Source: Spirochaetota bacterium
GTDB taxonomy: Bacteria > Spirochaetota > UBA4802 > UBA5550
Direction: 5' to 3'
DNA: 64,000 nt
Assembly (NCBI GenBank): GCA_041749375.1
Contig: JBGTBN010000035.1
Location: 7,016-71,015 of the forward strand
The position numbers were made by a program, and so were the translations under genes. How positions within the stretch are numbered: the first letter of the stretch is position 1; each line of letters starts with the position of its first letter. This document shows, piece after piece, positions 10,389 through 62,208 of this stretch. The notes beneath the pieces were generated by a model. The model was not told where the DNA came from and made no database searches. It worked only from the letters and a program-made list of their open reading frames with translations.

Positions 10389-10420
10389 GACCGGCATGAT
10401 TCCATTGGAGGACAGGGCAT

Positions 10421-12372: not shown

Positions 12373-12389
12373 CGGCGGCTCCGGCACGG

Positions 12390-13223: not shown

Positions 13224-13388
13224 TGTATTTTTCCTCGCGGTCTGTTAACGAGAGCTAAAAAAAGAGAATGCACCTCTCGATTGCGCCTTGGTATGAAATT
13301 AATGATAACGGCTTTTCGGGTCAATGATTTCCGTATTATAATGAGTAAAGGGTAAAAAAAATGTTACAGGCAAATGCCCGCTTAGTTA

Positions 13389-13417
13389 TTGACACGGTAT
13401 GGTTGCCATGCTAGAGT
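13389..13417 (+). promoter_or_regulatory. Sigma70-type promoter candidate TTGACA-N17-TAGAGT
   Basis: TTGACA at 13389-13394 and TAGAGT at 13412-13417, about 50 nt upstream of the lipoprotein ATG at 13470. Confidence 0.45.
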
Positions 13418-13469
13418 AGCTGCGCTTCATGCCTTTGCATTCAACAATTCAATCAGAGGTCGGTGCAAT

Positions 13470-14108
13470 ATGATACGCAGAACGTATAATTCAATCGGCG
13501 TTGCAGGGATCGTAACTTTTGCCATTCTCGCCGTATCCTGTTCGACCGCGAAAATATCAGTGAACAAGGCGGACTTCGCCAGGCTGAAGAGCATCGCGGT
13601 CGTCGATTTCGAAACCGGGCCCGGCATACCCGCGGTCATAGCGGATGAATGCGAGGAGGCCTTCAGAGGCCATTTCGTAGATGTCGGTAAAAACGTGGTA
13701 GAGCGGGCCAGGCTCAATGCGATTTTAAAGGAGGTGGAGCGCTCGCAGGCGGGGATCGTGGAGAATTCCGAGGAGATAGGCAGGCTTTCCGGCGCGCAGG
13801 CGCTTTTCATGGGTACCGTAACCAGGAACTCGGAAGACGTAAGGGTGGTTGAATATATCGAATATGTCAAGAACCCGGTAACAAAGGAAACAGAGAAAAT
13901 AAAGAAAAGGAAGAAGATGAAGTATTTCACGTTCCAGGTGCAGGCTCGCCTCGTATCCACTGCAACCGGGGCCACTATAATGACCATCAAGAACGAGAGG
14001 CCGGAGCGCTCATACGAGATGACGAGCTCGATCACTCTCACCGGGTTCAGGGAATATATTCTAGACCAGATGGGCAAGGACATGAAGAAGGCTTTAAAAG
14101 CTGATTAG
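13470..14108 (+). CDS. Lipoprotein (CsgG/LpoB-like pattern suspected)
   Basis: Signal peptide with lipobox AILAVSC. The pattern IAVVDFE...VVERARLNAILKE...GAQALFMGTV resembles CsgG-like lipoproteins. Confidence 0.65.
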   Translation: MIRRTYNSIGVAGIVTFAILAVSCSTAKISVNKADFARLKSIAVVDFETGPGIPAVIADECEEAFRGHFVDVGKNVVERARLNAILKEVERSQAGIVENSEEIGRLSGAQALFMGTVTRNSEDVRVVEYIEYVKNPVTKETEKIKKRKKMKYFTFQVQARLVSTATGATIMTIKNERPERSYEMTSSITLTGFREYILDQMGKDMKKALKAD

Positions 14109-14115
14109 GAGGTTT

Positions 14116-14880
14116 GTGACTGCGGATAATGTAGTAGATGGACAATATTCTACACAAGGTTGGAATAGATATGCCTATGTGCATAATAATCCTATAAGGT
14201 ATAAGGATCCGACTGGGCATATATCGATGACCGGGTCACCTGAAGGAGATGAAGCATTAGCTAGAAAGGATCCTAAAGCATATATAGCATTAAGTGAAAA
14301 AAATGCTGTAATACATAAAAATTTAATGGAAGGGAGTGAAAAATTACTAAAGGCAAAAGGTGATAGACTTCTTAAATATGGTAGTCCAATAGAAAAACTA
14401 ACAAAAGAATCATATTCTAGTAATATAACTTCCACATTTGACACAAGATCATTCAAAGATATCGGGTTTCATGCCCACAAGGGCATTGATGTTAAGGCAG
14501 ATGAAGGGACTCAAATTTTGGCAACATATGAGGGAAAAATCGAATTTAAAAAAGCATCTGAAAGAACATCTAAAGGTCAAGCACTGAAAGATAAGAATGG
14601 CGATCCATTACTAACGGGATATGGTTATCACGCAGTAATTACACACCCGGATGGTTCGACATCATTGTATGGACATATGAATAAAAAAGATTGGGAAGCT
14701 GCACAGGAACAGTATACTAAAAAAGATGAATCGGGTAATTTATTAAATTCTGTTAATAAGGGAGATAAAATTGGTGGTGTTGGATCATCGGGTTATTCTA
14801 CAGGTAATCATTTGCATTTCGAAATTCGGATAAATGATTCTCCTGTTGATCCCATAAAAGTGTTCAAGAAAACACTTTGA
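14116..14880 (+). CDS. Orphan Rhs/YD-repeat C-terminal tip fused to an M23 metallopeptidase toxin domain
   Basis: Begins at a GTG after AGGAGG. N-terminus WNRYAYVHNNPIRYKDPTGH matches the end of the RHS core (DPxG motif). M23 motifs HKGID (HxxxD) and GNHLHFE (HxH) are present. The region is AT-rich. Confidence 0.8.
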   Translation: MTADNVVDGQYSTQGWNRYAYVHNNPIRYKDPTGHISMTGSPEGDEALARKDPKAYIALSEKNAVIHKNLMEGSEKLLKAKGDRLLKYGSPIEKLTKESYSSNITSTFDTRSFKDIGFHAHKGIDVKADEGTQILATYEGKIEFKKASERTSKGQALKDKNGDPLLTGYGYHAVITHPDGSTSLYGHMNKKDWEAAQEQYTKKDESGNLLNSVNKGDKIGGVGSSGYSTGNHLHFEIRINDSPVDPIKVFKKTL

Positions 14881-14904
14881 ATATTTAACGGAGTAATAAC
14901 TGAA

Positions 14905-15510
14905 ATGAAAAATATTGTTGTCATAATTATTATTTTTTTAAACATTATATGCTTTGGTTGCAAAGAAAAAGATGATAAAAAGGATATAACCCAAAGTGTA
15001 GTAAAAGTGCAAAAATTATTATTAAGAGATAGTCCTAATCAAAATGCAAAGGTTTTAGCAGTTTTATTAATTGATGATAAAATTGAGATTATTGAAAAAA
15101 CTAATCATATATCAATCATCGATGGTATGGAGAGAAACTGGTATAAAATTAAAACGTCTCAAAATATTGTTGGTTATGTTTTTAGTGGATACTTAAAAGA
15201 ACCAGATGACAGAGAATATCAAATGAATGATAAGCCATTTGATGTCACTGGATGTTGGGCAGAGTATTTGGATCCCCCTAATCAAATTTATTGTTTTTAT
15301 AAGGGTGGAAAATTTGAAAGGAAATTTCAGAGCGAAGAAAAAGGGGAAGAAATATTTACGGGTAAATTTTTATATAATGGGAATAATGCAATAAGAATTA
15401 AAGAAGATAAGAAAGATGAGTATATCATTAGGGTTTTTTTACATAATGGAAAAACAACATTGAAATACGATGACTATTTCTTTGATCCGGAATTGCATTC
15501 GAATGACTGA
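14905..15510 (+). CDS. SH3b-domain lipoprotein, candidate immunity protein
   Basis: Signal/lipobox NIICFGC. SH3-like block LLLRDSPNQNAKVLAVL...NWYKIKTSQNIVGYVFSGYL. Lies directly downstream of the toxin with the same AT-rich composition. Confidence 0.65.
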   Translation: MKNIVVIIIIFLNIICFGCKEKDDKKDITQSVVKVQKLLLRDSPNQNAKVLAVLLIDDKIEIIEKTNHISIIDGMERNWYKIKTSQNIVGYVFSGYLKEPDDREYQMNDKPFDVTGCWAEYLDPPNQIYCFYKGGKFERKFQSEEKGEEIFTGKFLYNGNNAIRIKEDKKDEYIIRVFLHNGKTTLKYDDYFFDPELHSND

Positions 15511-15868
15511 ACTGAACCATAAAATGGGTTGAATTGGTAAAGCCCTTATGAAAGCCCTGCATATACTACTGTCGTCTAATTTAGCATTATACGAATTTCG
15601 TTTATTGTTAAATATCATATTCTTTACTGAAACTGAAATACCAATAAAGTGATTAGTGACGGTAATCGTCGAATAGATATTAGAAAAATAGAGTTATCAA
15701 AACCATTCGCCGGAGGATAACTGGACGTCGGAAGCACAAATTCAAGGCTATGAAGGACTTCGGGAATACTTTGAATAAAAGAAGAATAAAATATTAAAAA
15801 TGTATTGAAAAAAACATGATAGGTCATTAGCTTTTCTATAGTCCTTATTTCATAGCAAGGTGATATGC

Positions 15869-16078
15869 ATGGAAGCGTTAAAGTATAAAACAATCGTAAA
15901 GAATGATGGCGTCATTAACCTTACCGGCGTTCCCTTCAAGAAAGGCCAGGAATTGGAAATGATAATCCTCATTGAACCCCTTGCGGAAAAGCGGGAGGGC
16001 AGCGGCAAGAAATTCAATGCGGTGAAGATTAACACGTCCGGATTCAAGTTCGACCGGGAAGTCGCAAAAGAGCGATAG
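15869..16078 (+). CDS. Antitoxin-like small protein (AbrB/AF2212-like)
   Basis: 69 aa. The block KNDGVINLTGVPFKKGQELEMIILIE resembles AF2212/DUF104-type antitoxins. It directly precedes a PIN ORF. Confidence 0.55.
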   Translation: MEALKYKTIVKNDGVINLTGVPFKKGQELEMIILIEPLAEKREGSGKKFNAVKINTSGFKFDREVAKER

Positions 16079-16184
16079 CGTTTTTTTTGATACTAATATT
16101 GTCCTATATCTCTATTCAGGGGATGAGCCGGAGAAACAGCGCCGCAGTCAGGCGCTGGTTGATTCTCATGACGGCATAATCAGC

Positions 16185-16475
16185 ATGCAGGTGCTGAATG
16201 AATTTTCCAGCACGCTACGCAAGAAATTTAAGTTTGAATATGATATAATTGATTCCGCAGTTAAGGAACTTTCCGCAGGCTTCACTGTCGTACCGCAAAA
16301 CCTGCAGACAATATTTTCCGCATTCAGCATCGGGAATCGATACGGCTATTCCTATTATGACAGCCTCATTGTTGCCACGGCTCGTGAAAAGGGCTGCAAG
16401 GTCCTCTATTCCGAAGATCTGCAACACGGCCAGGTCATTGAAGATACGTTGACAATAATCAATCCATTTGCATGA
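16185..16475 (+). CDS. PIN-domain (VapC-like) toxin, N-terminus unresolved
   Basis: C-terminal PIN blocks YYDSLIVATAREKGCKVLYSEDLQHG. In-frame upstream codons (from 16080) encode VFFDTNIVLYLY, which includes the first catalytic Asp, but contain no ATG/GTG/TTG. Confidence 0.65.
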   Translation: MQVLNEFSSTLRKKFKFEYDIIDSAVKELSAGFTVVPQNLQTIFSAFSIGNRYGYSYYDSLIVATAREKGCKVLYSEDLQHGQVIEDTLTIINPFA

Positions 16476-16550
16476 TATACCGTCTAATTTTTGTATCCAT
16501 TGTTTTCCGGTGTGACATACATTTTTTTGAAAAAAATCAATCTTTTTTCG

Positions 16551-16733
16551 TTGACAATTATGAGGTATGAATTTAATTATTAAACAGTTGGTTGGCTGAC
16601 CAATTTAATTATTGGATTACGATTGATTATTTGAGAGCCAATCGATTCAGGTTCATATGTGGGGAAAGATATGAGGGCCATTGTTGTTATTGGCCTTTTT
16701 AAAAAGAGACAAATTGGTTGATCGTCCAATCAA
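16551..16733 (+). promoter_or_regulatory. Promoter candidate (TTGACA-N17-TAATTA) plus an array of ATTGG/CCAAT inverted-repeat boxes
   Basis: TTGACA at 16551-16556. Inverted repeats AGTTGGT-N6-ACCAATT (16585-16605), ATTGG-N8-CCAAT (16713-16730) and AATCGATT (16638-16645). Located upstream of the cluster. Confidence 0.4.
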
Positions 16734-16789
16734 AAAGCTGATTAATGATTAAAACGTTGTAATTGTTCAGTTTCATTCGGCGGGTCATA

Positions 16790-17338
16790 ATGCTGTTAAA
16801 AGGATGTCTCCACACTCATACCACCTGTTCCGACGGCAAGCTGACGCCCCAGGCGGTGGCGGAGGCTTACGAATCGAGGGGATATGACTTTGTAGCGTTC
16901 ACTGACCATGATTATCTGCTGAAGCCGAACTATCGCGAGCTGTACGATCAGGTCAAAACCGACATGATCATTTTCCACGGCATCGAGATAACGGCTTTCG
17001 TTCGGGGCTACATTCATGTGGGGAAGATCGAGGGGGACAGCGAGACGCTCCATATCTTCAACCACATCGGTGAATATGACATGACGCCGGAGCAGGTGCT
17101 GGAGCGGCTGGTGGATCTGGAGCAGATGTTTCCCCTGGACGCGGTGGAGATTACGACAAAGGGGTTCCGGGACACGCTGTTCGAGTCGCTGAACATCAAA
17201 TACCCGAAAATCGCATCCGATGACTCGCATACGCTCGTGGGCATCGGGCGGGCCTGGGTCGAGCTTGACGCGAAGCGGGAGAAGGATTCGATACTCAGGG
17301 CAATAAAGCATGGCTCGTTCTGGAACTGCTACGTGTGA
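16790..17338 (+). CDS. PHP-domain metal-dependent phosphoesterase
   Basis: LKGCLHTHTTCSDGKLTP..YDFVAFTDHDY are PHP His/Asp motifs. Confidence 0.75.
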   Translation: MLLKGCLHTHTTCSDGKLTPQAVAEAYESRGYDFVAFTDHDYLLKPNYRELYDQVKTDMIIFHGIEITAFVRGYIHVGKIEGDSETLHIFNHIGEYDMTPEQVLERLVDLEQMFPLDAVEITTKGFRDTLFESLNIKYPKIASDDSHTLVGIGRAWVELDAKREKDSILRAIKHGSFWNCYV

Positions 17339-17475
17339 TTGCGGGACCCGGGCGGAAAGCGGAAGATTCCCGCGCAGGAGTGCGCGGGGGCGAGGACTTA
17401 TAACAGATACGGTATACTAATTCAGGAGGCTTATAGTGATCCTTTATCTTTTCAGAATTTACAGGAGGATTGGTA

Positions 17476-18621
17476 ATGGGTAAAAGAATGGCGATCTGCG
17501 CCGTTGCGCAGATTAAGAACGATCCGGAATACAGGCATCTTCGTTTCCAGAACATGCTGCTTGAGTGCTTTGAGTCGATTATGGGCCAGACAAAGGTGAC
17601 CTTTGACATGGAGAAGGGCATCCGGACAATCATCACATGCTCGGATGACGTGTTCGACGCGCGGACCATATCCAACAACGGTATAACGGACGTCGTGGGA
17701 GCGCACTTCCGCGGTGAAGAGAAAATGGCGCAGGAGAGCATCAACGGCCTCGGCTACGGTATGGCATGCATACTCAGCGGGCATGATGATGTGATCCTGT
17801 TCATGGGTCACTGCAAGGAATCACAGGGAGAGAGCCGGCGGATGGCGACGAACCTTTCCTACGATCCGTTCTACAGCAGGCCTCTCGGGATGGATTTTCA
17901 GAACGTGGACGCCCTGCAGGCGCGGGCATACATGGAAAAATCGGGCGTTACCGACGAGCACCTCGCGAAAATAGTGGTCCGCTCCAGGAAGAACGCAGCG
18001 AAGAACCCCTACGCGCGGGAGAACAAGCTCGTCGACGAAAAAGAAGTCATGAATTCGCCGATGTACGCGGACCCGCTGCGCGAGCTCCACGTGTACCCGG
18101 TCACCGACTGGGCGTACGGGATGCTCCTCTGCTGCGAAGAACGGGCGAAAGAGTTCACGAAAAACCCTGTGTGGATCACCGGGTACGGCAGCTGCATGGA
18201 CCGCTATTTCCTCGGCGATCGTGACCTCTCATCGAACTTCTCGCTTAAAAACGCCGCCAAGCGGGCATATGATAAGGCCGGCGTCAGGGACCCGAAGAAA
18301 GACGTCCAGCTCTTCGAACTGAGCGACCACGCGGCGCACCAGCTCCCCATGTGGGCTGAAGGCGTCGGCATCGCCGACGAGGGCAAGGGCGGAAAATGGA
18401 TCGACGACGGCGGCATGGACAAGTTCAGCGTGAACCTGTCGGGCGGCCAGCTCAACGGCAACCCGCTCCTGCTCGGGGGCGCGGCACGGGCCATTGAGTG
18501 CTACTACCAACTGACGGGCCAGGCAGGCGAGCGCCAGGTCAAGGGAGCCAAGCGGGCCGTGGCCCAGGCGGCCACCGGCGGCGCGGGCCAGCACCAGGCC
18601 GTGATAGTAATGGAAGCGTAG
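17476..18621 (+). CDS. Thiolase-fold protein, alpha-type, degenerate catalytic motifs
   Basis: AGGAGG SD. SCPx-thiolase-like overall (GHCKES, NLSGGQL), but the nucleophile loop reads KMAQESING and the His motif reads GNPLLLGG. Confidence 0.85.
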   Translation: MGKRMAICAVAQIKNDPEYRHLRFQNMLLECFESIMGQTKVTFDMEKGIRTIITCSDDVFDARTISNNGITDVVGAHFRGEEKMAQESINGLGYGMACILSGHDDVILFMGHCKESQGESRRMATNLSYDPFYSRPLGMDFQNVDALQARAYMEKSGVTDEHLAKIVVRSRKNAAKNPYARENKLVDEKEVMNSPMYADPLRELHVYPVTDWAYGMLLCCEERAKEFTKNPVWITGYGSCMDRYFLGDRDLSSNFSLKNAAKRAYDKAGVRDPKKDVQLFELSDHAAHQLPMWAEGVGIADEGKGGKWIDDGGMDKFSVNLSGGQLNGNPLLLGGAARAIECYYQLTGQAGERQVKGAKRAVAQAATGGAGQHQAVIVMEA

Positions 18622-18633
18622 GGAGGTGAAATA

Positions 18634-19830
18634 ATGGCACATAAAAAAAACAGAAACGTGGGCATAATAGGCATCGGGCAGACGAAGCATTCCAGCCACC
18701 GCGAGGATGTGAACCAGCCTGAAATGATACATGAAGCGGTCAGCCTGGCGCTGAAGGACGCGAACCTGACAATGAATGACATCGACTGCGTCGTTCACGG
18801 CAACATGGAGCTCTTCGAGATGGTGCACCAGCCGGACATGTGGCACGTGCTCGGCACCGGTGCCTACGGCAAGGATTGCATAAGGATCACCACCGGCGGC
18901 ACAGTCGGCGCGACCCTTTCATGCGCGTCGGACAACCTGGTGGCCTCGGGAATGTATGACATCGTCATGGCCATCGGGTTCGAGAAACTGCAGGAGGGGC
19001 ATACCACTGCCGGCATCACAAACATGGCGGATCCACTCTGGTTCCGCAAGATACAGGCTGGAGCCCTGACCGGTTCCAGCGCATATGATGTCGAGCGGGA
19101 ATTTGGACTCGAGCGGGCCAACCGGGCGTCGCTGACGTACCGGATTATCATGGACAAGCACGCCGGGCTCAATCCCAACGCGCACCGGGCGTTCGGACTT
19201 GAATTCAGCCAGATCGACGATCTCATCAAGAGCTCTCCGAAGCTCGTCGGCGAGCTGAAGCTCATTGAAATGTGCTCCCAGTCGGACGGCGCATGCTGCG
19301 TAATTTACGCCTGCGAAAAAAAGGCAAAAGAGATGTCCAAAAACCCGGTCTGGATACGGGACCATATCACCGCGCACAAGGAAGAGACCTTTACCATATT
19401 CGGATACAACAGGGAATTCCCTGTCATGAAGACGCACAAGTTCGCGGCGGAACAGCTCTTCAGGCGGAATGACATCAAGGACCCGCTGAATTATTTTGAC
19501 GTGTTCGAGATGTACGATCCTGCATCATGGTGGGCAATCGACTGGCTCAGGGACTTCTTCGACATGAAGGGCGATGAGCACCTCAAGCTCATCGAGGAGA
19601 AGGAGATCATGATCGGCGGGAAGATGCCAATCAACCCGTCGGGCGGTGTTATCGGGTCGAACCCGATCGGCGCGACAGCGCTGATACGGGTGGCCGAGGC
19701 TGCGCTCCAGGTGCGCGGCAACGCAGGCGGCCACCAGATCCCGACCCCGGTCAATCATGCGCTGGCCTCGGGCTTCGGCGGTACCATGTGGACGGTAATG
19801 ACGATGCTTGAGAAGGAACTTAACTGGTAG
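18634..19830 (+). CDS. Thiolase-fold protein, beta-type, degenerate catalytic motifs
   Basis: RITTGGTVGATL replaces the CxSG loop. AIGFEK is present. NPSGGVIGSNPIGATA has Asn in place of His. Confidence 0.85.
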   Translation: MAHKKNRNVGIIGIGQTKHSSHREDVNQPEMIHEAVSLALKDANLTMNDIDCVVHGNMELFEMVHQPDMWHVLGTGAYGKDCIRITTGGTVGATLSCASDNLVASGMYDIVMAIGFEKLQEGHTTAGITNMADPLWFRKIQAGALTGSSAYDVEREFGLERANRASLTYRIIMDKHAGLNPNAHRAFGLEFSQIDDLIKSSPKLVGELKLIEMCSQSDGACCVIYACEKKAKEMSKNPVWIRDHITAHKEETFTIFGYNREFPVMKTHKFAAEQLFRRNDIKDPLNYFDVFEMYDPASWWAIDWLRDFFDMKGDEHLKLIEEKEIMIGGKMPINPSGGVIGSNPIGATALIRVAEAALQVRGNAGGHQIPTPVNHALASGFGGTMWTVMTMLEKELNW

Positions 19831-19840
19831 GAGGACAATC

Positions 19841-21031
19841 ATGGCAGAATACTGGGGAATAAAAGTAGAAGATATATTCAACACGATGAAAGACCGTTTC
19901 CGTCCCGATGGAGCCAAGGGAGTCGATGCCGTTTTCGGATATGACATCAAGGACGAGGGGAAGTGGAAACTGACTGTAAACAATAATGTGATGAAAATCG
20001 AGAAGACCGACGACCTGTCGAATTGCGTGTCTGTCATGAAGGCGGACGGTGAGACCTTTGTCGGAGTGAACACCGGCAAGGTCGATGCGACGAACGCCTT
20101 CATGGGCGGCAAGGTCAAGGTCGACGGCGACATGGCCGCCTTCGGGAAGACCGGCAAGCTCTTTCGCAAGTTCGTCATCGCGAAAAAAGAAATGTCTACG
20201 AAGGAATATCTCGTTGATATGTTCGCGACGGTGGTTCCGCGCTTTAAGGCCGGCGAGTCGGAAGGTGTTGACGCTTCCTTCGCGTTCGATCTCGGCGGAC
20301 CGGACGGCGGTAAGTGGACCGTCTTCATCAGGAATAAGGAATGTTCGGTCACGGAAACGATCGAGGGGAAACCGAGCGTGACTCTCGAATTCAACGATGC
20401 CAAGGACTATGTCGATTTCATCCTTGGAAAAATCGACGCGCAGAGCCTGCTCGCGGCCGGTAGGGCCTCGGCCAAGGGCGACATCAACATGATGCAGACG
20501 AAATGGCCGGTCCTCTTCGATAAGTACAAGGACCCGGTTGGAAGCAGCGTTCCGGAGCAGGAACTCCTGGTACTTAAGAAGACGATATCGGTAAACCAGA
20601 AGTACGCAACCGGCCCCGTCATGGGCAAATTTCTCAAGGGGCTGAAGGATAAAAAGATATTCGGGAACAAATGTACCAAGTGCGGACGCATTCAGCTGCC
20701 CCCGCGGGAAGTATGCGCAGAGTGCCGCGTGCGTGCGGGTGATTTTCTGGAGGTTGGACCCAAGGGCGAGGTCCGCTACATGGACATTGTCTATTACGCC
20801 ATGCCCGACCCGCTGACAGGCATTGCGCGCGAAACCCCGTACGGCGGGATCAACGTCCTGCTCGACGGCTGCAAAGGAAATGAAACACTGCCGCATTTCA
20901 TACGGAGGGATCAGATAGAAAAGATCCAGATGGGCTGGAATGAAAAGAAGGGAACGCGCGTCCGTCCCGTGTGGGAGGAAAACCGGATCGGCGATATCTG
21001 GGACATCAAATACTTCGAGATCGATGAGTAA
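19841..21031 (+). CDS. SCP2-SCP2-DUF35 fusion protein
   Basis: GGAGG SD. Two SCP2-like repeats (..NAFMGGKVKVDGDMAAFGK.. and ..LLAAGRASAKGDINMM..), then a Zn ribbon CTKCGRIQLPPREVCAEC and an OB-fold ending DIKYFEIDE. Confidence 0.85.
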   Translation: MAEYWGIKVEDIFNTMKDRFRPDGAKGVDAVFGYDIKDEGKWKLTVNNNVMKIEKTDDLSNCVSVMKADGETFVGVNTGKVDATNAFMGGKVKVDGDMAAFGKTGKLFRKFVIAKKEMSTKEYLVDMFATVVPRFKAGESEGVDASFAFDLGGPDGGKWTVFIRNKECSVTETIEGKPSVTLEFNDAKDYVDFILGKIDAQSLLAAGRASAKGDINMMQTKWPVLFDKYKDPVGSSVPEQELLVLKKTISVNQKYATGPVMGKFLKGLKDKKIFGNKCTKCGRIQLPPREVCAECRVRAGDFLEVGPKGEVRYMDIVYYAMPDPLTGIARETPYGGINVLLDGCKGNETLPHFIRRDQIEKIQMGWNEKKGTRVRPVWEENRIGDIWDIKYFEIDE

Positions 21032-21042
21032 GGAGCAGGGAT

Positions 21043-22470
21043 ATGACAACAAAGCAGATGAAAGGATTTGAAGACAGCTATGTCGTTGAAGGTAAGATGG
21101 CGCTCCCTTATTCTTACTTCGCCGGGCGTGTCGGCAGCAAGTTTATTACGACGATCCGGGACCAGAAGAAGATCATGGGAGTGAAGTGTCCGACCTGCGG
21201 CATTGTCTACCTGCCCCCGCGGCAGGTGTGCGACAAGGACTTCACCGACATCCGTGATAACTGGGTGGATGTCGGCACGGAAGGGAAGGTGACAAATTTC
21301 ACGGTGGTGCGGTACGACGACAAGCACCTGCCGCGGAAGGCGCCCTTCGTGCTGGCGCTGATCAAGCTGGAAGGGGCGGACACGCCCTTCATGCATATCG
21401 TCGAGGAGTGCCCGATCGAGAACGTGAAGATCGGGATGAAGGTCGAGGCCGTGTTCGCCGAGAAAACGACGAGCACCATCCTTGACATAGATCATTTCAA
21501 GCCCGCGGCCGCGACGCTTTCGGTCCACGAGCGCAACAAGGCAAGGAAACAATGGGTTCCGTCAGACGAGCCCGAAACTCAAGAAAAACGGAAAGGGGGG
21601 AAACCTGACATGTCAAAACCAGCAATTCTCACTGCAGCGCTGACAGGCGCCGCCACAATGAAGAACCAGAATCCGAACGTGCCGTATACGCCCGCCGAGT
21701 TTGCGGAAGAAGCGTACAAGTGCTACAAGGCCGGAGCGGCCATGGTGCACGTGCATGCCCGCATGGACAACGGGTTCGCGACCCACGAGCATGACCGAAT
21801 CCGCGAGACCCATGACGCCATCAAGCAGAAGTGCCCCGAGCTGATCGTGAACCTGAGCTCGGCGGTCGGTATGGGCAAGACGGCGGAACAGCGGATTTCG
21901 CAGATCGTGGCGATCAAGCCGGAGATGGCGTCCCTCAACACCAACACCATGAACTTCAGCATCATCGACCGGAAGACCGGTAAGATATTCATAGACTTCG
22001 TGTTCGAGAACACCTTCACCATGCTGCAGGATTTCGGCAAGGCCATGGAAGAGAACGGCGTAAAGCCCGAGATTGAAGTGTACGACATGGGCGGCCTCGA
22101 CAATACCATGCTGATGGCCAAACAGGGCTTCTTTACCGATCCGATGAACTTCAACTTCGTGTGGGGCGTTGCCGGCGGACAGGCGTTCAGGGCGGATGCC
22201 TTCATAGCCCTGATGAACGCGATCCCAGCGAAAGCAAACTTCACCACCTGCGGCGTTGGCAGCGACGAGTTCCCGGCCATCATGCAGTCCTGTCTCCTGG
22301 GCGGTCACATGAGGGTCGGCCTCGAGGACAACATCCGCATGCCGAACGGCGAGCTGGCCAAGGGAAGCTACGAGCTCGTTGAAGTGGCCGCACGGATGTG
22401 CGAATGCCTCGGCCGGCCGATTGCAACGCCGGATGAAGCGCGCGCGATAATGGGTCTTAAGAAGAAGTAA
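21043..22470 (+). CDS. DUF35-BKACE (beta-keto acid cleavage enzyme, DUF849) fusion protein
   Basis: N-terminal CPTCGIVYLPPRQVC plus an OB-fold ending DIDHFKP. About 40-aa linker. BKACE blocks PAILTAALTGA and AAMVHVHARMDNG follow. Confidence 0.85.
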   Translation: MTTKQMKGFEDSYVVEGKMALPYSYFAGRVGSKFITTIRDQKKIMGVKCPTCGIVYLPPRQVCDKDFTDIRDNWVDVGTEGKVTNFTVVRYDDKHLPRKAPFVLALIKLEGADTPFMHIVEECPIENVKIGMKVEAVFAEKTTSTILDIDHFKPAAATLSVHERNKARKQWVPSDEPETQEKRKGGKPDMSKPAILTAALTGAATMKNQNPNVPYTPAEFAEEAYKCYKAGAAMVHVHARMDNGFATHEHDRIRETHDAIKQKCPELIVNLSSAVGMGKTAEQRISQIVAIKPEMASLNTNTMNFSIIDRKTGKIFIDFVFENTFTMLQDFGKAMEENGVKPEIEVYDMGGLDNTMLMAKQGFFTDPMNFNFVWGVAGGQAFRADAFIALMNAIPAKANFTTCGVGSDEFPAIMQSCLLGGHMRVGLEDNIRMPNGELAKGSYELVEVAARMCECLGRPIATPDEARAIMGLKKK

Positions 22471-22580
22471 CCTCACCCCCCGGCCCCCCTCTCCCCACAG
22501 AAGAGGGGGAGTATAAGAGGGGGCTCCGTCCCGAAGAAACCCTCTCCCATGGGGAGAGGGTGCGCGGAGCGCGGGTGAGG
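22471..22580. repeat. C/G-rich nested-hairpin intergenic repeat
   Basis: Outer arms CCTCACCC (22471-78) and GGGTGAGG (22573-80). Inner hairpin CCCTCTCCC-atg-GGGAGAGGG (22540-22560). Confidence 0.6.
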
Positions 22581-22605
22581 TCATCGATAGTAAGGAGTAT
22601 GTTCA

Positions 22606-23385
22606 ATGGCCGACAAATGCTATTATGAAGTGAACGAGCGGGGCGTTGCCCTCATGAAAATCAACAACCCGCCGATGAACGCGCTGGATGAGCCCACAAT
22701 GCGTCAGCTGGAGAGCTCGATGAAAAAGCTCGCCGCGGACGATGCCGTCAAGGTCGTGGTCATAACCGGCGAGGGAGCCACCTTTATCGTGGGCGCCGAC
22801 GTCAACAAGGTCAGGGAAGTCGACACCCGGGAGAAGGGCGAGGCGCTCACCTCCGAGGCCCAGGGCATCATCAACCTTATAGAAAACCTGAGGAAGCCGG
22901 TCATAGCGGCGATAAACGGGCTCTGCCTGGGCGGCGGGACCGAGCTGGCCATGGCCTGCCACATGCGTTTTATAAGCGACCAGGCACAGATGGGCCTGCC
23001 GGAGATACTGCTGGGCATCATGCCGGCGTTCGGCGGCACCCAGCGCGCGGCGCGGTTACTGGGGCCGGCGCGGGCGATGGAGATCATGCTTACCGGTAAA
23101 TTTCTGCCGGCGGCCGAATGCGATCGTATCGGTCTGGTCAACAGGGTGATCCCGCACGCCATTGTTCTGGACGAGACCATGAAGTTCGCGAAGGAGCTTT
23201 CCTTTAAAGGGCAGCTCGCGGTCAGCGCCGTCATCGAGGCAGTCCTGGTCGGCGGGAGCATGTCCCTGGCGGACGGGCTCAAGCTTGAGAGCAGGCTCTT
23301 TGGAGGACTTGCGGAGAGCGAGGACAAGAAAGAGGGGATTGCGGCATTTTTAGAAAAGCGGAGGCCGGTTTTTAAGGGGAAATAG
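22606..23385 (+). CDS. Enoyl-CoA hydratase/isomerase (crotonase family)
   Basis: VVVITGEGATFIVGADV..AAINGLCLGGGTELAMACHMRF are crotonase oxyanion-hole motifs. Confidence 0.9.
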   Translation: MADKCYYEVNERGVALMKINNPPMNALDEPTMRQLESSMKKLAADDAVKVVVITGEGATFIVGADVNKVREVDTREKGEALTSEAQGIINLIENLRKPVIAAINGLCLGGGTELAMACHMRFISDQAQMGLPEILLGIMPAFGGTQRAARLLGPARAMEIMLTGKFLPAAECDRIGLVNRVIPHAIVLDETMKFAKELSFKGQLAVSAVIEAVLVGGSMSLADGLKLESRLFGGLAESEDKKEGIAAFLEKRRPVFKGK

Positions 23386-23528
23386 ACTTGTTCTGGCTCT
23401 GTCGTTTCGAAGGAGCGAGGCGACTAAGAAATCTTTCCCGGAGCATAGGGAAAGATCCCTCACCCCTCCGGGGTTCGGGATGACAGATGAGATGAGCAAC
23501 ATATTACAGATAAACGGGGGACTCGGCA

Positions 23529-25367
23529 ATGGTAGGAATGGAAAAGACGGTAAATGATGTTTTTCGCAATCGTGTTAAGAAGTACGGGGACAGGATCGCT
23601 ATAGAGAAGAAGCTTGGCGGGAAATGGCAGAGCGCTTCATGGAACGAGTACTATGAGCGCGCACGCGCAACGGGGCTCGGCCTGTATTCGCTGGGCATCA
23701 GGAAAGGACAGATGGTCGCCCTTCTGTCGGAGAACAGGCTCGAATGGCTCTACTCCGACATGGGCGCGCTGGGAATCGGCGGCGTCGTCATACCCGTGTA
23801 TCCCACGCTGGTTGCCGAGGAAATAGAATACATCCTCCAGAACTCCGGCTCAAAAGTCATCATACCTGAAAATAAGAACCAGATGAAGAAGGTCCTCGAA
23901 ATCGCGCATAAGTGTCCCGACCTCGAGAAGATCGTGGTCATGGAAGATGCGGACGCGGACAAATCGAACCCGAAAGTCATCACCTTCACCGAACTCATGG
24001 AGCTGGGACGGAAAAAGCACATCGAGGACCCTGCTCTTTTCGAGAAGCTGGCGTCCGAGGTAACACCGGACGACCTGGCGACCCTCGTATACACCTCCGG
24101 CACCACCGGGCTCCCCAAGGGCGCGATGATTTCCCACGGAAATATCTTCTGGGTCGTCCAGTCGCTTGACGCGATACGGCCGCATTTCGCCTCGGACAAG
24201 GACTGCACCGTTCCGTTCCTGCCGCTCTCCCACGTGTTCGAGCGGATCGCCGGTCACTTCTACGGCATGTACTGCGGCATCACCGCATCCTACGCCGAGA
24301 GCATCGATACCCTTCTGGCCGACTTCGAGGAGAAGCGGCCCACCATGATACTAGCCGTCCCCCGCGTGTGCGAGAAGGTCTACCAGAAGATCATGGCGCA
24401 GGTGAAGGAACAGTCTCCCTTCAAGCAGAAGGTCTTCGCGTGGGGCCAGAAAGTCGGGAACAAGATCAGCAAGCGCCGCGAAATGCACAGGAGCATACCA
24501 TTCTGGCTTACTATCAAATACAAAATTGCGTACGCCATGATCTTCAAGAAGCTGCAGGATAAGCTGGGCGGTCGCGTGACCTGGATGACGGCGTCGGGCG
24601 CGCCGACGGCGGAGGAGATCATTCGCTTCTTCAACGCGGCGGGCATTACCGTCATTCAGGGCTACGGCATGACCGAATCGACCGCCCCGGCCACCATGCA
24701 GTCACTTGCCGACTACCGGATCGGGACCACGGGCAAGCCGATCCCGGGACAGGAGATCAAGATCGCGGACGACGGCGAGATACTGCTGAAAGGCGGTAAC
24801 GTGATCAAGGGCTACTGGAAGCTCCCGGACGAGACGAAAGAGGCATTCACCGAGGACGGCTATTTCATGTCCGGCGACATCGGCATGTTCGATGACGAGG
24901 GCAACCTCCTTATCACCGACAGGAAGAAGGACCTCATCATAACCTCGGGCGGGAAGAACGTCGCGCCGCAAAAGATAGAGGGCCTGTTCAAGTCCGACCC
25001 GCTCTTCACGCAGTTCATCGTGATCGGGGAAAAGAAGAAGTACCTCTCCGGCCTGTGCAACATCAACCCGGACGAGGCGGAGCGGCTCGCGAAGCAGGAG
25101 GGCATCCCCTACGGCAAGCCGATGGACCTTCTCGACGATCCCAGGTTTCTGGCGATCGTGCAGAAGCACGTTGACGAGCGGAACACGCATCTTGCCAAGT
25201 ACGAGGGGATCAAGCAGTGGAGGGTCGTCAAGTCGGAGTTTTCACAGGACGGTGGCGAGCTCACGCCCTCGCTCAAGGTCAAGAGGAAAGTGGTTCACCA
25301 GAAGTACGGGGAGCTCATCGACCAGATGTACGATAAAGAGGCGGTCGACGAGCTGTACAAGCAGTAA
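23529..25367 (+). CDS. Long-chain acyl-CoA ligase (AMP-forming)
   Basis: YTSGTTGLPKGA, GYGMTES and SGDIG..DRKKDLIITSGGKNVAP motifs. Confidence 0.9.
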   Translation: MVGMEKTVNDVFRNRVKKYGDRIAIEKKLGGKWQSASWNEYYERARATGLGLYSLGIRKGQMVALLSENRLEWLYSDMGALGIGGVVIPVYPTLVAEEIEYILQNSGSKVIIPENKNQMKKVLEIAHKCPDLEKIVVMEDADADKSNPKVITFTELMELGRKKHIEDPALFEKLASEVTPDDLATLVYTSGTTGLPKGAMISHGNIFWVVQSLDAIRPHFASDKDCTVPFLPLSHVFERIAGHFYGMYCGITASYAESIDTLLADFEEKRPTMILAVPRVCEKVYQKIMAQVKEQSPFKQKVFAWGQKVGNKISKRREMHRSIPFWLTIKYKIAYAMIFKKLQDKLGGRVTWMTASGAPTAEEIIRFFNAAGITVIQGYGMTESTAPATMQSLADYRIGTTGKPIPGQEIKIADDGEILLKGGNVIKGYWKLPDETKEAFTEDGYFMSGDIGMFDDEGNLLITDRKKDLIITSGGKNVAPQKIEGLFKSDPLFTQFIVIGEKKKYLSGLCNINPDEAERLAKQEGIPYGKPMDLLDDPRFLAIVQKHVDERNTHLAKYEGIKQWRVVKSEFSQDGGELTPSLKVKRKVVHQKYGELIDQMYDKEAVDELYKQ

Positions 25368-25424
25368 CGGAAACAACGACCGGATGACGGTCCAGCAAAG
25401 ATACATCGAGAAAGGAGCATCAGT

Positions 25425-26420
25425 ATGAACAAGGCAGTTGAATTGAAACAGGGACAGAACGAGCTTTTTGCCGATCCCGATGCCGACAGGGCCAGGGAGT
25501 TTTTCAGGCACAAGTCCCGCGCCATGGTGAACAAGGTCACCACCGCGCAGGAAGCGGTAAAGAACCTACTCCATGACGGCGATTACCTCGCGATCGGCGG
25601 ATTCGGGGCAAACAGGATACCCACGGCGATCTTGCACGAGATCGTTCGCCAGAAAAAGAAAAACCTGGCCTTCGCGGGCCATACGGCAACGCATGACATG
25701 CAGATCCTGATAGCGGGGGAATGCATCGATCGGCTGGACATAGCCTACATCATCGGCCTCGAGGCGCGGGGCCTTTCACCCAGCTCGCGCCGTGCTGTCG
25801 AGAGCGGTAAAATCAAGCTGACGGAATGGACCAACGCGACGCTGTCATGGCGGATCAAGGCGGCGGCCATGGGCCTCTCCTTCCTGCCGGCGCGGAACAT
25901 CCTCGGCACCGATACCTTCAAGTACAGCGCGGACAAGGAGATCCTCTGTCCCTTCACCGGGCAGAAGTATGTGGCGCATCCGGCGCTCTACCCGGATTTT
26001 GCCGCCATTCACGTGCACGAGTGCGACGTCTACGGGAACGCGCACGTGTACGGCGCCTCGGTGTCCGACCAGGACCTGGCCAAGGCGTCCAGGCGGGTGG
26101 TCCTCACCACCGAGAAGCTCATCCCGAACGAGGAGATCAGGCGCCAGCCGCATGCGACCTTTATTCCCTTCTGGTGCGTCGACGCGGTCGTCGAGGTGCC
26201 CTACGGCAGCTACCCGGGCAACATGCCCTACGAGTATTTCTCGGACGAGGAATACCTGAAGCAGTGGCTGAACATCGAGAAGGACCCGGCGGAATTTGAA
26301 AAATTCTTCAAGAAGCAGGTGCTGGACACGAAAAATTTCAACGAATACCTGGAGCTGAACGGCGGCATTGAGAAGATCCTCAAGCTGCGCGCCATCGAGC
26401 ACCTGATTGACAAGAAATAA
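25425..26420 (+). CDS. Family I CoA-transferase, subunit A (glutaconate CoA-transferase-like)
   Basis: DGDYLAIGGFGANRIPTAILHEI..LAFAGHT is a typical alpha-subunit N-terminal region. Confidence 0.85.
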   Translation: MNKAVELKQGQNELFADPDADRAREFFRHKSRAMVNKVTTAQEAVKNLLHDGDYLAIGGFGANRIPTAILHEIVRQKKKNLAFAGHTATHDMQILIAGECIDRLDIAYIIGLEARGLSPSSRRAVESGKIKLTEWTNATLSWRIKAAAMGLSFLPARNILGTDTFKYSADKEILCPFTGQKYVAHPALYPDFAAIHVHECDVYGNAHVYGASVSDQDLAKASRRVVLTTEKLIPNEEIRRQPHATFIPFWCVDAVVEVPYGSYPGNMPYEYFSDEEYLKQWLNIEKDPAEFEKFFKKQVLDTKNFNEYLELNGGIEKILKLRAIEHLIDKK

Positions 26421-26431
26421 GGAGGAGAGAA

Positions 26432-27202
26432 ATGGCAGACTACAATCCGATGGAATTAATGATATGCGTTGCCGCGCGCAATCTCGAGGACGGGGCCACC
26501 GTCGTCGTGGGCACCGGCGCGCCCTGCGCGGCCGCCATGCTCGCGCAGAAAACGCACTCACCCAACCTCACGATCATGTTCGAGGCGGGCGGCGTCGCGC
26601 CGATCCTCCCCTCGATGCCGATATCGGTGGGCGATTCGCGGACCTTTCACCGCGCGATCCTGGCCAGCTCCATGCCCGACATCATGGAGACCTGCCAGCG
26701 CGGGATGGTGGACTATACCTTCCTGGGCGGCGCGCAGATCGACATGTACGGGAACATCAACTCGACCATGATCGGCGACGACCACGCGAAGCCCAAGGTC
26801 CGCTTCCCGGGATCGGGCGGGGCGAACGACCTGGCGAGCCTCTGCTGGCGGACGATGATGATGACGCCGCAGGACGCGAAGCGTTTCACGGAAAAGATCA
26901 ACTTCATCACCTCGCCTGGCTACCTGCAGGGCGGCAACTCCCGCTACGAGGCGGGCCTGCCCAAGGGCACCGGCCCCTACAGGATCATCACCAACATGGC
27001 GATCATGGGTTTCGACGAGGAGACCAAGTGGATGAAGGTGCTGAACGTTAACCCGGGCTACAGCCGGAAGGACATACAGGACAACTGCGGGTTCGAGTTG
27101 AAGTGGGCGGAAAAGCTTGTCGATACCGATCCCCCGCACGCGGACGAGCTGCGGATCCTCCGCGAAGAGGTAGACCCGCACCGGTATATCATAGGGAGAT
27201 AG
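26432..27202 (+). CDS. Family I CoA-transferase, subunit B
   Basis: VVVGTGAPCAAAMLAQ..IMFEAGGV has Glu where the catalytic Glu of the ESG/SENG motif is expected. GSGGANDL is also present. Confidence 0.85.
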   Translation: MADYNPMELMICVAARNLEDGATVVVGTGAPCAAAMLAQKTHSPNLTIMFEAGGVAPILPSMPISVGDSRTFHRAILASSMPDIMETCQRGMVDYTFLGGAQIDMYGNINSTMIGDDHAKPKVRFPGSGGANDLASLCWRTMMMTPQDAKRFTEKINFITSPGYLQGGNSRYEAGLPKGTGPYRIITNMAIMGFDEETKWMKVLNVNPGYSRKDIQDNCGFELKWAEKLVDTDPPHADELRILREEVDPHRYIIGR

Positions 27203-27292
27203 GCCCCGGCCCCCGCCCATCCTCCCCCGAACGCGGGGGAGGTGGCCGCAGGCCGGAGGCGGGATGAGGTAATATTACAAAGGAGAGCAATC

Positions 27293-27757
27293 ATGGCCGA
27301 TCAATTCAAAGGCATTGAACCGATGGTGTATAATAGCAAGATAAACGTACCCTATTCATGGTGGGCCGGTGATACCGCCTCCAGGTTCTTTATCTCGCTC
27401 AGGGATGAGAAGAAAATCATCGCCACCCGATGCGGAACGTGCAAGAAAACGTTTCTTCCGCCCCGGAAGTCGTGCCCGACCTGCTTCACCGAGAACACGG
27501 AATGGGTGAATGTTTCCGATGAGGGGACGGTGCTTGCCTTTACGGTGGCGCGCCGCCAGTTCGCGTCGATCCCCGGCGATAAAAAGGTCCCGGTCATATG
27601 GGCGCTGATCAAGCTAGAGGGAGCTGACACGGCCCTGCTTCATTACCTTGACGAAGTGAAGCCGGAAGACGTAAAAATCGGCATGCGCGTGAAAGCGGTC
27701 TTCCCAGAAGAGCGGAAGGCCACCATCCGCGACATCTCGCATTTCAAACCGGTGTAA
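27293..27757 (+). CDS. DUF35 Zn-ribbon/OB-fold protein
   Basis: AGGAGA SD. CGTCKKTFLPPRKSCPTC, and an OB-fold ending RDISHFKPV. Confidence 0.85.
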   Translation: MADQFKGIEPMVYNSKINVPYSWWAGDTASRFFISLRDEKKIIATRCGTCKKTFLPPRKSCPTCFTENTEWVNVSDEGTVLAFTVARRQFASIPGDKKVPVIWALIKLEGADTALLHYLDEVKPEDVKIGMRVKAVFPEERKATIRDISHFKPV

Positions 27758-27760
27758 AGA

Positions 27761-27904
27761 GCGTGTCCCGTAACGGGACGCGCTCGCTGCGGTACAGGAA
27801 GTACCGCCATTTTCCGAAGCAGTGCTGAGGAAAATGAAGGCTTTCGGGAGCTTTGCTTTCGAAAGCCGTTATCCCAAAACTACATGGATGTAGGTTTTGG
27901 GATA
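27761..27904 (+). other. Array of five consecutive stem-loops in the DUF35/thiolase intergenic region
   Basis: Stems at 27761-83, 27789-807, 27808-36, 27839-67 and 27870-904, the last with 16-nt arms. The array ends 8 nt before the AAGGAG SD of ORF 27926. Confidence 0.55.
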
Positions 27905-27925
27905 TAAATGACAAGGAGCGCAGAT

Positions 27926-29071: not shown

Positions 29072-29081
29072 GAGGAATATC

Positions 29082-30239: not shown

Positions 30240-30255
30240 CAACAGGAGGACGACA

Positions 30256-30720: not shown

Positions 30721-30725
30721 TATTA

Positions 30726-59529: not shown

Positions 59530-59589
59530 ATGCGGTATCGTGCCGCGGGATAGCACTGGAATATCCACATTATCGAGGGGGAAGGGATT

Positions 59590-62195: not shown

Positions 62196-62208
62196 GGAGG
62201 CATGATCG

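Follow-up and report, generated by a model that had tools for sequence, protein, structure and literature searches.

The 64,000-nt stretch of contig JBGTBN010000035.1 from a Spirochaetota bacterium analysed here (the window) contains, on the + strand, a gene for a 396-residue protein in which two SCP2 domains are followed by a DUF35 domain (hereafter SSD). The gene lies in an operon directly behind two genes for thiolase-fold proteins, A1 and A2, neither of which retains the residues of a thiolase. On balance, and with modest conviction, we favour the view that SSD belongs, as a subunit without catalysis of its own, to a complex of several proteins that processes acyl-CoA, docked through its DUF35 domain on A1/A2, with the SCP2 domains holding the hydrophobic tail of the substrate and the core acting as a lyase other than a thiolase; the docking and its stoichiometry, the lipid binding, the chemistry and the substrate class are what we infer in this proposal. 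The target gene is built as follows:

19841-21031, + strand: SSD, SCP2-SCP2-DUF35, 396 residues, an intact open reading frame (ORF) with two Pfam SCP2 stretches and zf-ChsH2
19865-20176, + strand: SCP2 domain 1, residues ~9-112 (best Pfam SCP2 stretch 14-108; Alkyl_sulf_C 8-111)
20192-20524, + strand: SCP2 domain 2, residues ~118-228 (second Pfam SCP2 stretch)
20558-21028, + strand: DUF35 domain, residues 240-396 (conserved N-terminal segment, four-Cys zinc ribbon and OB fold)

Translation of the + strand gave a frame uninterrupted over 396 codons that contains all of the peptides quoted in the earlier note on this DNA, and the start at ATG 19841 agrees with the N-termini (MAEYWG) of the homologues; the antisense ORF of similar length opposite SSD is a shadow of a high-GC gene. 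The Pfam SCP2 model (PF02036) matched SSD in two stretches with E=6.3e-22 and a score of 78.3 bits (cut-off 21.3), and matched SSD homologues above the cut-off as well. Compared with one another, the two repeats prove homologous, at 30% identity with E=2e-13. In an AlphaFold2 (AF2) model of the whole protein, SCP2 domain 1 had pLDDT (predicted local distance difference test) values of ~80-92 and domain 2 of ~86-91, and Foldseek matched these domains to alkylsulfatase C-terminal domains at the top of the list and to human SCP2, the SCP2L domain of MFE-2, insect and yeast SCP2 and UbiJ (TMt 0.52-0.71). Both N-terminal domains are thus modelled with the alpha/beta SCP2 fold. No NCBIfam model matched SSD, and an Rfam scan of the whole window returned zero matches, so an RNA element is not involved.

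In the C-terminal part, Pfam detected zf-ChsH2 on residues 266-298 (E=2e-8, 34.3 bits against a cut-off of 23.2), and the four zinc-ribbon cysteine residues Cys278, Cys281, Cys292 and Cys295 (nt 20672-20725) were invariant in an alignment of 27 diverse homologues. The OB part carries a conserved insertion (PDPLTG..RETPYG). A profile built from residues 240-396 and standalone relatives and compared with the PDB matched SSO2064 (3irb) at 7e-18 and, through the OB part, positions 29-141 of the archaeal thiolase/HMGCS scaffold (6esq_E) at 3e-13; PhlB, ChsH2-DUF35, Shy-DUF35 and BbsA were also matched. In an exhaustive phmmer search of 1.84 billion representatives, many standalone DUF35 proteins (~155 residues) aligned to residues ~240-394 of SSD. 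When residues 240-396 were modelled alone, AF2 gave a pLDDT of 88 and a pTM (predicted template modelling score) of 0.78, and all 21 Foldseek matches at E<=0.001 were DUF35-fold proteins, namely 19 DUF35 chains of thiolase complexes or SSO2064 (TMt 0.52-0.71) and the related Trf. The earlier note had read this gene as a single 396-residue ORF with two SCP2 domains, a four-Cys zinc ribbon and an OB fold, and translation, Pfam, profiles and AF2/Foldseek bear it out in each of these respects.

The genes that bear most directly on the function of SSD form two sets around it and further downstream:

17470-18621, + strand: A1, thiolase-fold protein (Thiolase_C_1; alignments to PDB thiolases)
18634-19830, + strand: A2, thiolase-fold protein (alignments to PDB thiolases; 73 orthologues)
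21043-22470, + strand: DB, a DUF35 domain (residues ~40-138) followed by a full BKACE domain (residues 194-472) (Pfam BKACE 2e-93, OB_ChsH2_C 2.6e-13, zf-ChsH2)
27242-27757, + strand: D, standalone DUF35 protein, 171 residues (Pfam; blastp to the DUF35 of DB)
27908-29071, + strand: B1, thiolase-fold protein, paralogue of A1
29025-30239, + strand: B2, thiolase-fold protein, paralogue of A2
30256-30720, + strand: D', standalone DUF35 protein, 154 residues (Pfam OB_ChsH2_C 3e-12, zf-ChsH2)

SSD lies inside this operon, whose genes are closely spaced on the + strand; the gaps around SSD measure 10-12 nt. Relatives of SSD are encoded in 146 GTDB species genomes, and the best 80 GTDB loci among these (L001-L080) were used for the synteny analysis; going by their record titles, they comprise 35 from Spirochaetota (many labelled Leptospirales-like), 42 from Smithella, Syntrophales or other Desulfobacterota, and three unclassified. 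Synteny was scored by tblastn of the window operon proteins against the 80 loci. The gene immediately upstream of SSD was that of A2 in 74 of the 75 loci with enough sequence, and a DUF35-coding gene stood directly downstream in all 77 of 77. This downstream gene was a full DUF35-BKACE fusion in 63 of 73 loci, and ~10 Desulfobacterota loci had a plain DUF35 gene instead of DB. The BKACE part is complete, since DB scored 313 bits against the BKACE hidden Markov model (HMM; PF05853) over profile positions 2-274 of 274, with scores under every NCBIfam BKACE equivalog cut-off. We found no paper combining BKACE and DUF35.

To judge the thiolase-fold proteins, we aligned A1, A2, B1, B2 and a fifth window protein, T478, to the solved thiolases 6hsj (SCP2-thiolase type 1), 7yvy and 6esq (archaeal) and 7pxp (BbsB). 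The nucleophilic cysteine residue was missing in all five. The position is occupied by glycine in A2 (TTGG89TVG), B2 (TTGG104TTG) and T478, and the nucleophile loop is deleted in A1, by three residues, and in B1. The HDCF/HDAF motif reads Y294DPA in A2, S285DHA in A1, Y284DAF in B1 and Y301QPY in B2, and the histidine residue of the GHP motif is replaced by asparagine in A1 (Asn331), A2 (Asn343) and B2 (Asn350) and kept in B1. T478 (36389-37825) keeps HDAF and one histidine residue and has long insertions. With neither the nucleophilic cysteine nor the HDCF/HDAF and GHP histidine residues in place, A1 and A2 cannot, as judged from their residues, be thiolases.

The replaced residues are under constraint in A2 and B2. 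Gly89, the Y294-D-P-A motif and Asn343 of A2 were invariant in 73 of 73 orthologues, and Gly104, Y301-Q-P-Y and Asn350 of B2 in 43 of 43, whereas A1 drifts among 70 orthologues (Ser285 is S, C, N or D; His287 is H, A, Q or S). This contrast makes A2 look catalytic and A1 degenerate; thus A2 is probably the catalytic subunit and A1 probably its non-catalytic partner. In the Sal/Ltp2/SLP branch of the superfamily, glycine (in Sal) replaces the nucleophile and tyrosine the HDCF histidine residue, this tyrosine being the catalytic base of a retro-aldol reaction, and Sal, with its Cys-to-Gly change, is reported to be incapable of thiolysis (PMC12329534). A2 carries the Sal/Ltp2 signature, with Gly89 and with Tyr294 at the first position of YD[HC][FY], both invariant.

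Comparison of the two sets of genes by blastp showed that A1 is paralogous to B1 (36% identity), A2 to B2 (41%), D to the DUF35 of DB (47%) and D' to the DUF35 of SSD (39%); by tblastn, D' was the closest paralogue of the SSD DUF35 (35%, E=1e-26). D' is easily overlooked, being overlapped by an out-of-frame 102-residue ORF (30384-30692) and an antisense 195-residue ORF, and the true start of B2 is probably ATG 29082 (MAKRVAIVG). On these alignments the operon consists of two paralogous sets, [A1 A2 SSD DB] and [D B1 B2 D'], each with two thiolase-fold proteins and two DUF35 types, and module A reads as module B with an SCP2 tandem added to the type-I DUF35 and BKACE to the type-II DUF35. In solved DUF35 complexes, such as that of Sal-Shy, whose subunits are arranged as alpha-beta-beta-alpha, a DUF35 sits on each protomer of the thiolase-fold dimer (PMC12329534). 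Two thiolase-like proteins and two DUF35 types per module would fit one DUF35 of each type per heterodimer, so that a heterodimeric core carrying one of each is the simplest reading of the operon.

Apart from SSO2064 and Trf, every solved DUF35 match is bound in a thiolase-fold complex: 6ok1 (Ltp2-ChsH2), 9myr (Sal-Shy), 6esq (thiolase/HMGCS), 5m3k (PhlABC), 9vbt (MucABC) and 7pxp (BbsAB). The statement of the earlier note that DUF35 docks onto thiolase-fold proteins therefore holds, and genomic adjacency and the paralogous module point to such a complex for SSD itself. The link it drew to the ORFs at 17470 and 18634 gains from the near-absolute adjacency, the 10-12 nt gaps and the second module, but these partners are not thiolases, and the proposed delivery of substrate to a thiolase fails because A1, A2, B1, B2 and T478 all lack the nucleophilic cysteine residue and most lack the catalytic histidine residues. 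It also passed over the next gene, the DUF35-BKACE fusion, and with it the fact that each module has two different DUF35 subunits, SSD being one of those in module A. A hydrophobic substrate is plausible in view of the FadD11-like ligase in the operon and of a ligase-SCP2x2-DUF35 fusion in a relative (described below); it may, as the note argued, be very hydrophobic.

Two further activities encoded in the operon enter our proposal for its mechanism:

23529-25367, + strand: acyl-CoA ligase, FadD11-like/long-chain type (AMP-binding 1.7e-80; NCBIfam FadD11 373 bits, below the cut-off)
25425-26420 and 26432-27202, + strand: CoA-transferase subunits A and B (Pfam CoA_trans; distantly of the 3-oxoacid type, with TIGR02429 and TIGR02428 scores below the cut-offs)

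We propose that the C-terminal DUF35 of SSD docks on the upstream-encoded A1/A2 heterodimer and fills one of two DUF35 sites, the second of which would be taken by the DUF35 of DB, bearing BKACE (in variants a MaoC hydratase, or nothing). At the entrance to the active site of A2, the SCP2 tandem would keep hold of the substrate's hydrophobic tail, and it would pass the substrate between the assembled enzymes, from the ligase to A2 and on to BKACE or the hydratase. Because the Gly/Tyr pattern of A2 is that of the Sal, Ltp2 and SLP branch, its most likely chemistry would be that of a non-covalent C-C lyase (retro-aldol-type) acting on a CoA thioester. More speculatively, A2 could cleave a hydroxyacyl-CoA to acetyl-CoA and a carbonyl product; if this product were a beta-keto acid, BKACE could convert it with acetyl-CoA into an acyl-CoA and acetoacetate, and the CoA-transferase could then activate the acetoacetate. 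We put this A2-BKACE-CoA-transferase pathway forward as a hypothesis, since neither a carboxylase nor another source of the beta-keto-acid substrate was found among the scanned window ORFs.

Two other routes were considered and set aside. One, a carboxylation and HMG-lyase-like route from a beta-branched acyl-CoA via a 3-hydroxy-3-alkylglutaryl-CoA to a beta-keto acid for BKACE, is speculative, there being no carboxylase among those ORFs; for the other, classical beta-oxidation, they include neither a 3-hydroxyacyl-CoA dehydrogenase nor a Cys-containing thiolase. A bolder picture, which we regard as doubtful, is that the operon encodes an undescribed machine of syntrophic anaerobes, free of thiolase and 3-hydroxyacyl-CoA dehydrogenase, that shortens hydrophobic, maybe branched or isoprenoid, acyl chains by means of Cys-less C-C lyases (the heterodimers A1/A2 and B1/B2, each with two different DUF35 staples, which in module A bear the SCP2 tandem and BKACE), BKACE and a CoA-transferase recycling acetoacetate, and that is horizontally exchanged between Spirochaetota and Smithellaceae.

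Several observations weigh against the docked-lyase proposal. The OB model PF01796 gave no match on SSD at E<=0.01 in Pfam, and it passes on relatives such as P0122 (40% identical; 28.9 against a cut-off of 27.1) and the paralogue D' (46.7, 3e-12). The OB fold is nevertheless established, because the profile, the alignment to standalone DUF35 proteins, the paralogy with D' and AF2/Foldseek agree despite this miss; among the domains named in the earlier note, SCP2 and zf-ChsH2 were thus detected by HMMs and the OB fold was shown by other means. The DUF35 of SSD is divergent, being 25-28% identical to D and to the N-terminal DUF35 of DB. A2 appears to lack the general acids of both characterized aldolases: Cys304 of Sal (in YDCY) and the oxyanion His296 that accompanies the acid Tyr344 in Ltp2 (YDHF) are absent, the motif being YDPA with an invariant Pro296; we suspect, from residue spacing, that the asparagine residue at the GHP position sits where Ltp2 has Tyr344. 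A2 matched Ltp2 (6ok1_A) at 5e-9 and true SCP2-type and archaeal thiolases at ~1e-23, Sal was not among its PDB matches, and its closest similarity was to SCP2-thiolase type 1 rather than to the aldolases. All of the best 80 SSD loci come from metagenome-assembled genomes (MAGs). Finally, it is conceivable that the SCP2 tandem is fixed rather than a carrier, as the alkylsulfatase C-terminal domains are its best structural matches.

This last point leads to an alternative that we consider possible, if unlikely: SSD docks on A1/A2 as proposed, and the tandem is static, serving as a cap or extension of the cleft or as an oligomerization domain, as in alkylsulfatases. The ranking of the alkylsulfatase domains in both searches is in its favour, Alkyl_sulf_C being the second Pfam match of SSD and related to SCP2. 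So is the junction to DUF35, where in the 27-sequence alignment a variable linker of only ~10 residues is followed by the near-invariant segment EQELLxLKK, and so is the Sal-Shy complex, in which the zinc finger of DUF35 itself shapes the substrate cleft (PMC12329534). However, the AF2 model of whole SSD shows no confident inter-domain packing (overall pTM 0.37, with the DUF35 part poorly modelled at pLDDT 40-69), and relatives carry one, two or three SCP2 domains with no other changes, which is easier to understand for a modular binder: P0126 and P0127 have a single SCP2 and DUF35, and variants of ~513 residues (P0063, P0068, P0070 and P0071) have a third SCP2 that is a recent duplicate of repeat 2. 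In P0167, moreover, the SCP2 tandem is fused to a ligase without any DUF35.

More distant loci show the tandem in further settings. L081 (42% identity) encodes TetR, PHP, two thiolase-fold proteins, an acyl-CoA ligase-SCP2x2-DUF35 fusion, a DUF35-MaoC hydratase fusion and an acyl-CoA dehydrogenase, its second DUF35 protein combining hydratase and DUF35 domains as ChsH2 and Shy do. In L082 and L083 (40% identity), PHP is followed by two thiolase-fold genes, SSD and a plain DUF35 gene of 154 codons, and in L083 then by a separate BKACE gene of 289 codons; the split genes provide a Rosetta-stone link between the type-II DUF35 and BKACE. P0153 is a KASIII-like-DUF35-SCP2x2 protein whose neighbours are a GDSL lipase, a ligase of the long-chain type and a thiolase. 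A fusion of this kind, 722 residues long, is encoded at 6001-8169 of L084/L085, where a KASIII/HMGCS-like condensing enzyme is joined to the OB domain of a DUF35 and to an SCP2 pair; a thiolase gene is next, the flanking genes encode a GDSL lipase and an acyl-CoA ligase of the long-chain type, and the fusion resembles an archaeal thiolase/HMGCS/DUF35 complex with the lipid carrier built in. Judged by these domain combinations, DUF35, thiolase-fold and acyl-activating machinery repeatedly takes up the SCP2 tandem as a modular accessory, which supports a role in the handling of acyl substrates.

Next in plausibility, and improbable in our view, is that SSD is a free-standing non-covalent carrier of acyl-CoA or lipid, a solubilizer or a sensor, or that it docks on B1/B2 instead. 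DUF35 proteins were indeed proposed to be non-covalent acyl-CoA delivery proteins by Krishna et al. 2010 (PMC2954200), but the DUF35 structures solved since then are of stable subunits of thiolase-fold complexes. The position of SSD directly after A2 across the loci, with a gap of ~10 nt, argues for docking on A1/A2, and module B owns a type-I DUF35 of its own, D'. In addition, the core of PHP, A1, A2, SSD and the following DUF35 gene is kept in L055, L057-L062, L081 and L082, where module B is not seen within the recovered sequence.

A slimmer chance still is left to the reading closest to the earlier note, that A1/A2 is a genuine thiolase which receives a very hydrophobic 3-oxoacyl-CoA from SSD and cleaves it by thiolysis, the whole being a split prokaryotic SCPx. 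SCPx is a known SCP2-thiolase fusion, and SCP2-thiolase type 1 and archaeal thiolases head the PDB matches of A1 and A2, which share the SCP2-type thiolase fold. This reading is strongly disfavoured by the residue changes described above, which in A2 are invariant, and by the failure of Sal to carry out thiolysis with the equal Cys-to-Gly change.

That the ORF is an artefact of assembly or annotation, a chimera or a fusion through a missed stop or frameshift as the earlier note had allowed, is ruled out for practical purposes by more than 100 independently assembled homologues of 393-397 residues and by the relatives in 146 GTDB species genomes, the homologues aligning collinearly over 27 sequences with 62% mean column identity. 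In assemblies from NCBI, ENA, JGI and Logan, 481 clusters (at 90% identity) matched SSD at E<=1e-3, and nearly all of the best 120 of these were 393-397 residues long with the Pfam content of SSD. Clustering at 50% left few representatives of the full-length family, just 22 proteins reaching E<=1e-30, placing it, by sequence, as a narrow clade. SSD is confirmed as a real, widely conserved protein of anaerobic Spirochaetota and Smithella-type bacteria.

The remaining genes of the operon and its immediate downstream neighbours are as follows:

16763-17338, + strand: PHP-domain protein, 191 residues, first gene of the core unit (Pfam PHP, PHP_C)
22606-23385, + strand: crotonase-type enoyl-CoA hydratase (Pfam ECH_1 1e-61; in 39 of 80 loci, mostly Spirochaetota)
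30726-31613, + strand: conserved protein of 295 residues, family unassigned (syntenic in 43 of 80 loci)
31677-32285, + strand: TetR regulator (Pfam; syntenic in part of the loci)
32478-33629 and 33679-34854, + strand: two acyl-CoA dehydrogenases (Pfam; syntenic in part of the loci)

The PHP gene occurred in 69 of the 80 loci as well as in the variant loci L081 and L082, and it opens the core PHP-thiolase fold-thiolase fold-SSD-DUF35 even in relatives of 40% identity; its product is weakly similar to 3',5'-nucleoside bisphosphate phosphatase/RNase RNM-type PHP phosphoesterases. The 295-residue protein had zero Pfam, NCBIfam and PDB matches, and to the eye its motifs ITSDGFGD and HDDIGFILID resemble those of PPM/SpoIIE-type phosphatases.

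The upstream flank (9969-14108) was common only to the Spirochaetota loci, at 50-78% identity, which marks the window as Spirochaetota-like, whereas the operon proteins (16763-31613) were 76-97% identical to those of the same Spirochaetota loci and 74-95% identical to those of Smithella/Syntrophaceae loci. Since operon identity is high across phyla while the flanks are shared only with Spirochaetota and at lower identity, the cassette has apparently moved between Spirochaetota and Smithella/Syntrophaceae, mixed bins being a less likely explanation. Between flank and operon lies a low-GC island (14100-16760) with a GC fraction of 0.32 (14100-15600) and 0.385 (15600-16760) compared with ~0.58 elsewhere, with genes for an M23 peptidase (14116-14880) and for an SH3_3-domain protein (14905-15510). 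Because no counterpart was found upstream of the operon in the 80 related loci, the island was probably inserted recently.

Elsewhere in the window, three GMC-family FAD oxidoreductases are encoded, at 855-3257 (-), 10828-12372 (+) and 57463-58815 (+), in a host that is presumably anaerobic; in Spirochaetota loci the gene at 10828 keeps its place in the upstream flank of the operon. A second CoA-ester-related cluster at 58915-63615 (+) comprises TetR, a 491-residue ORF and two HGD-D family proteins (61062-62195 and 62209-63615). The latter are 2-hydroxyacyl-CoA dehydratase component D-like, and the window showed no activator ATPase to go with them.

In the literature we found no paper characterizing the SSD family or its operon, including in Smithella and Syntrophus hosts. 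JGI and NCBI name SSD homologues 'OB-fold protein/putative sterol carrier protein', and SCP2 was already among the DUF35 fusion partners of Krishna et al. 2010 (PMC2954200). The architecture thus appears to be recorded but uncharacterized; the earlier note was right on the second point, and the SCP2-DUF35 fusion as such has been on record since 2010. An adjacent thiolase-like pair is also found in actinobacteria, Ltp3/Ltp4, which PMC6273163, with reference to Wilbrink 2012, describes as aldol-lyases acting on sterol side chains branched at C24. The NCBIfam matches of A1 and A2 include PRK07937 and PRK08313, presumably the models of Ltp4 and Ltp3, with scores far below the cut-offs (154 vs 419; 265 vs 514). 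No SCP2-DUF35 protein is known to occur with Ltp3/Ltp4.

DUF35 staples are emerging as organizers of thiolase-fold complexes in archaeal mevalonate entry, steroid side-chain aldolases, anaerobic toluene degradation and the Phl/Muc acyltransferases. If our proposal is true, a DUF35 with a lipid-binding module of its own would be a prokaryotic counterpart of SCPx on an accessory subunit, and two DUF35 subunits per Cys-less heterodimeric core would carry swappable cargo (SCP2x2, ligase, BKACE or MaoC hydratase). Smithella/Syntrophales and uncultured Spirochaetota have been implicated in the turnover of long-chain fatty acids and alkanes, and their lipid catabolism is biochemically ill-defined. 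The operon is abundant in these groups in methanogenic habitats; a defined complex would give a testable handle on lipid and acyl catabolism in anaerobes and possibly new C-C lyases for hydrophobic CoA esters.

The known systems closest to SSD include Ltp2-ChsH2 and Sal-Shy (6ok1 and 9myr). Like A2, they have a Cys-less thiolase fold (with glycine in Sal as in A2 and B2) and tyrosine in place of the HDCF histidine residue; their DUF35 chains gave the highest TM-scores with the C-terminal model of SSD (TMt 0.67-0.71); and their DUF35 staple is fused to a pathway component, a MaoC hydratase, as in the DUF35-MaoC protein that follows the SCP2 protein in L081. However, Ltp2 and Sal each form homodimers that bind a single type of DUF35, whereas the window has the heterodimer-like pairs A1/A2 and B1/B2 and two DUF35 types per module, and their add-on is a hydratase where those of the SSD module are SCP2x2 and BKACE. 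The acid residues also differ, His/Tyr344 and Cys304 in Ltp2/Sal against YDPA and Asn343 in A2, the equivalence with Tyr344 being one of spacing only. The hosts here, in contrast with those of the steroid aldolase complexes, are anaerobic Spirochaetota/Syntrophales MAGs with no known steroid catabolism.

SCPx and MFE-2 are comparable to SSD in that SCP2 is covalently attached to beta-oxidation-type machinery for bulky or branched acyl-CoAs, and the likeness extends to the matches of the SCP2 fold to 1ikt, 1c44 and 8af2 and of A2 to SCP2-thiolase type 1. In SCPx, however, SCP2 sits on an active thiolase (HDCF, Cys), whereas in the window the tandem is on the DUF35 subunit and the partner is Cys-less. 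In 6esq, PhlABC and MucABC, one DUF35 scaffold, similar to that of SSD in profile and fold, unites two different thiolase-superfamily proteins and enables channelling, and in PhlABC an active member is paired with an inactive one; yet nothing further is fused to their DUF35, the catalytic cysteine residue survives in at least one partner, and SCP2 and BKACE are absent. The C-terminal SCP2-like domain of alkylsulfatases (SdsA1 and Pisa1) and UbiJ show a bacterial SCP2 fold handling hydrophobic substrates beside a catalytic domain, although as a single domain, with a metallo-beta-lactamase fold or Ubi metabolon partners, and without CoA chemistry. Taken together, these comparisons suggest that what would set the SSD operon apart is that the staple, and not the enzyme, bears the carrier, that each module has two DUF35 types, that the heteromeric cores are Cys-less, and that BKACE is among the cargo.

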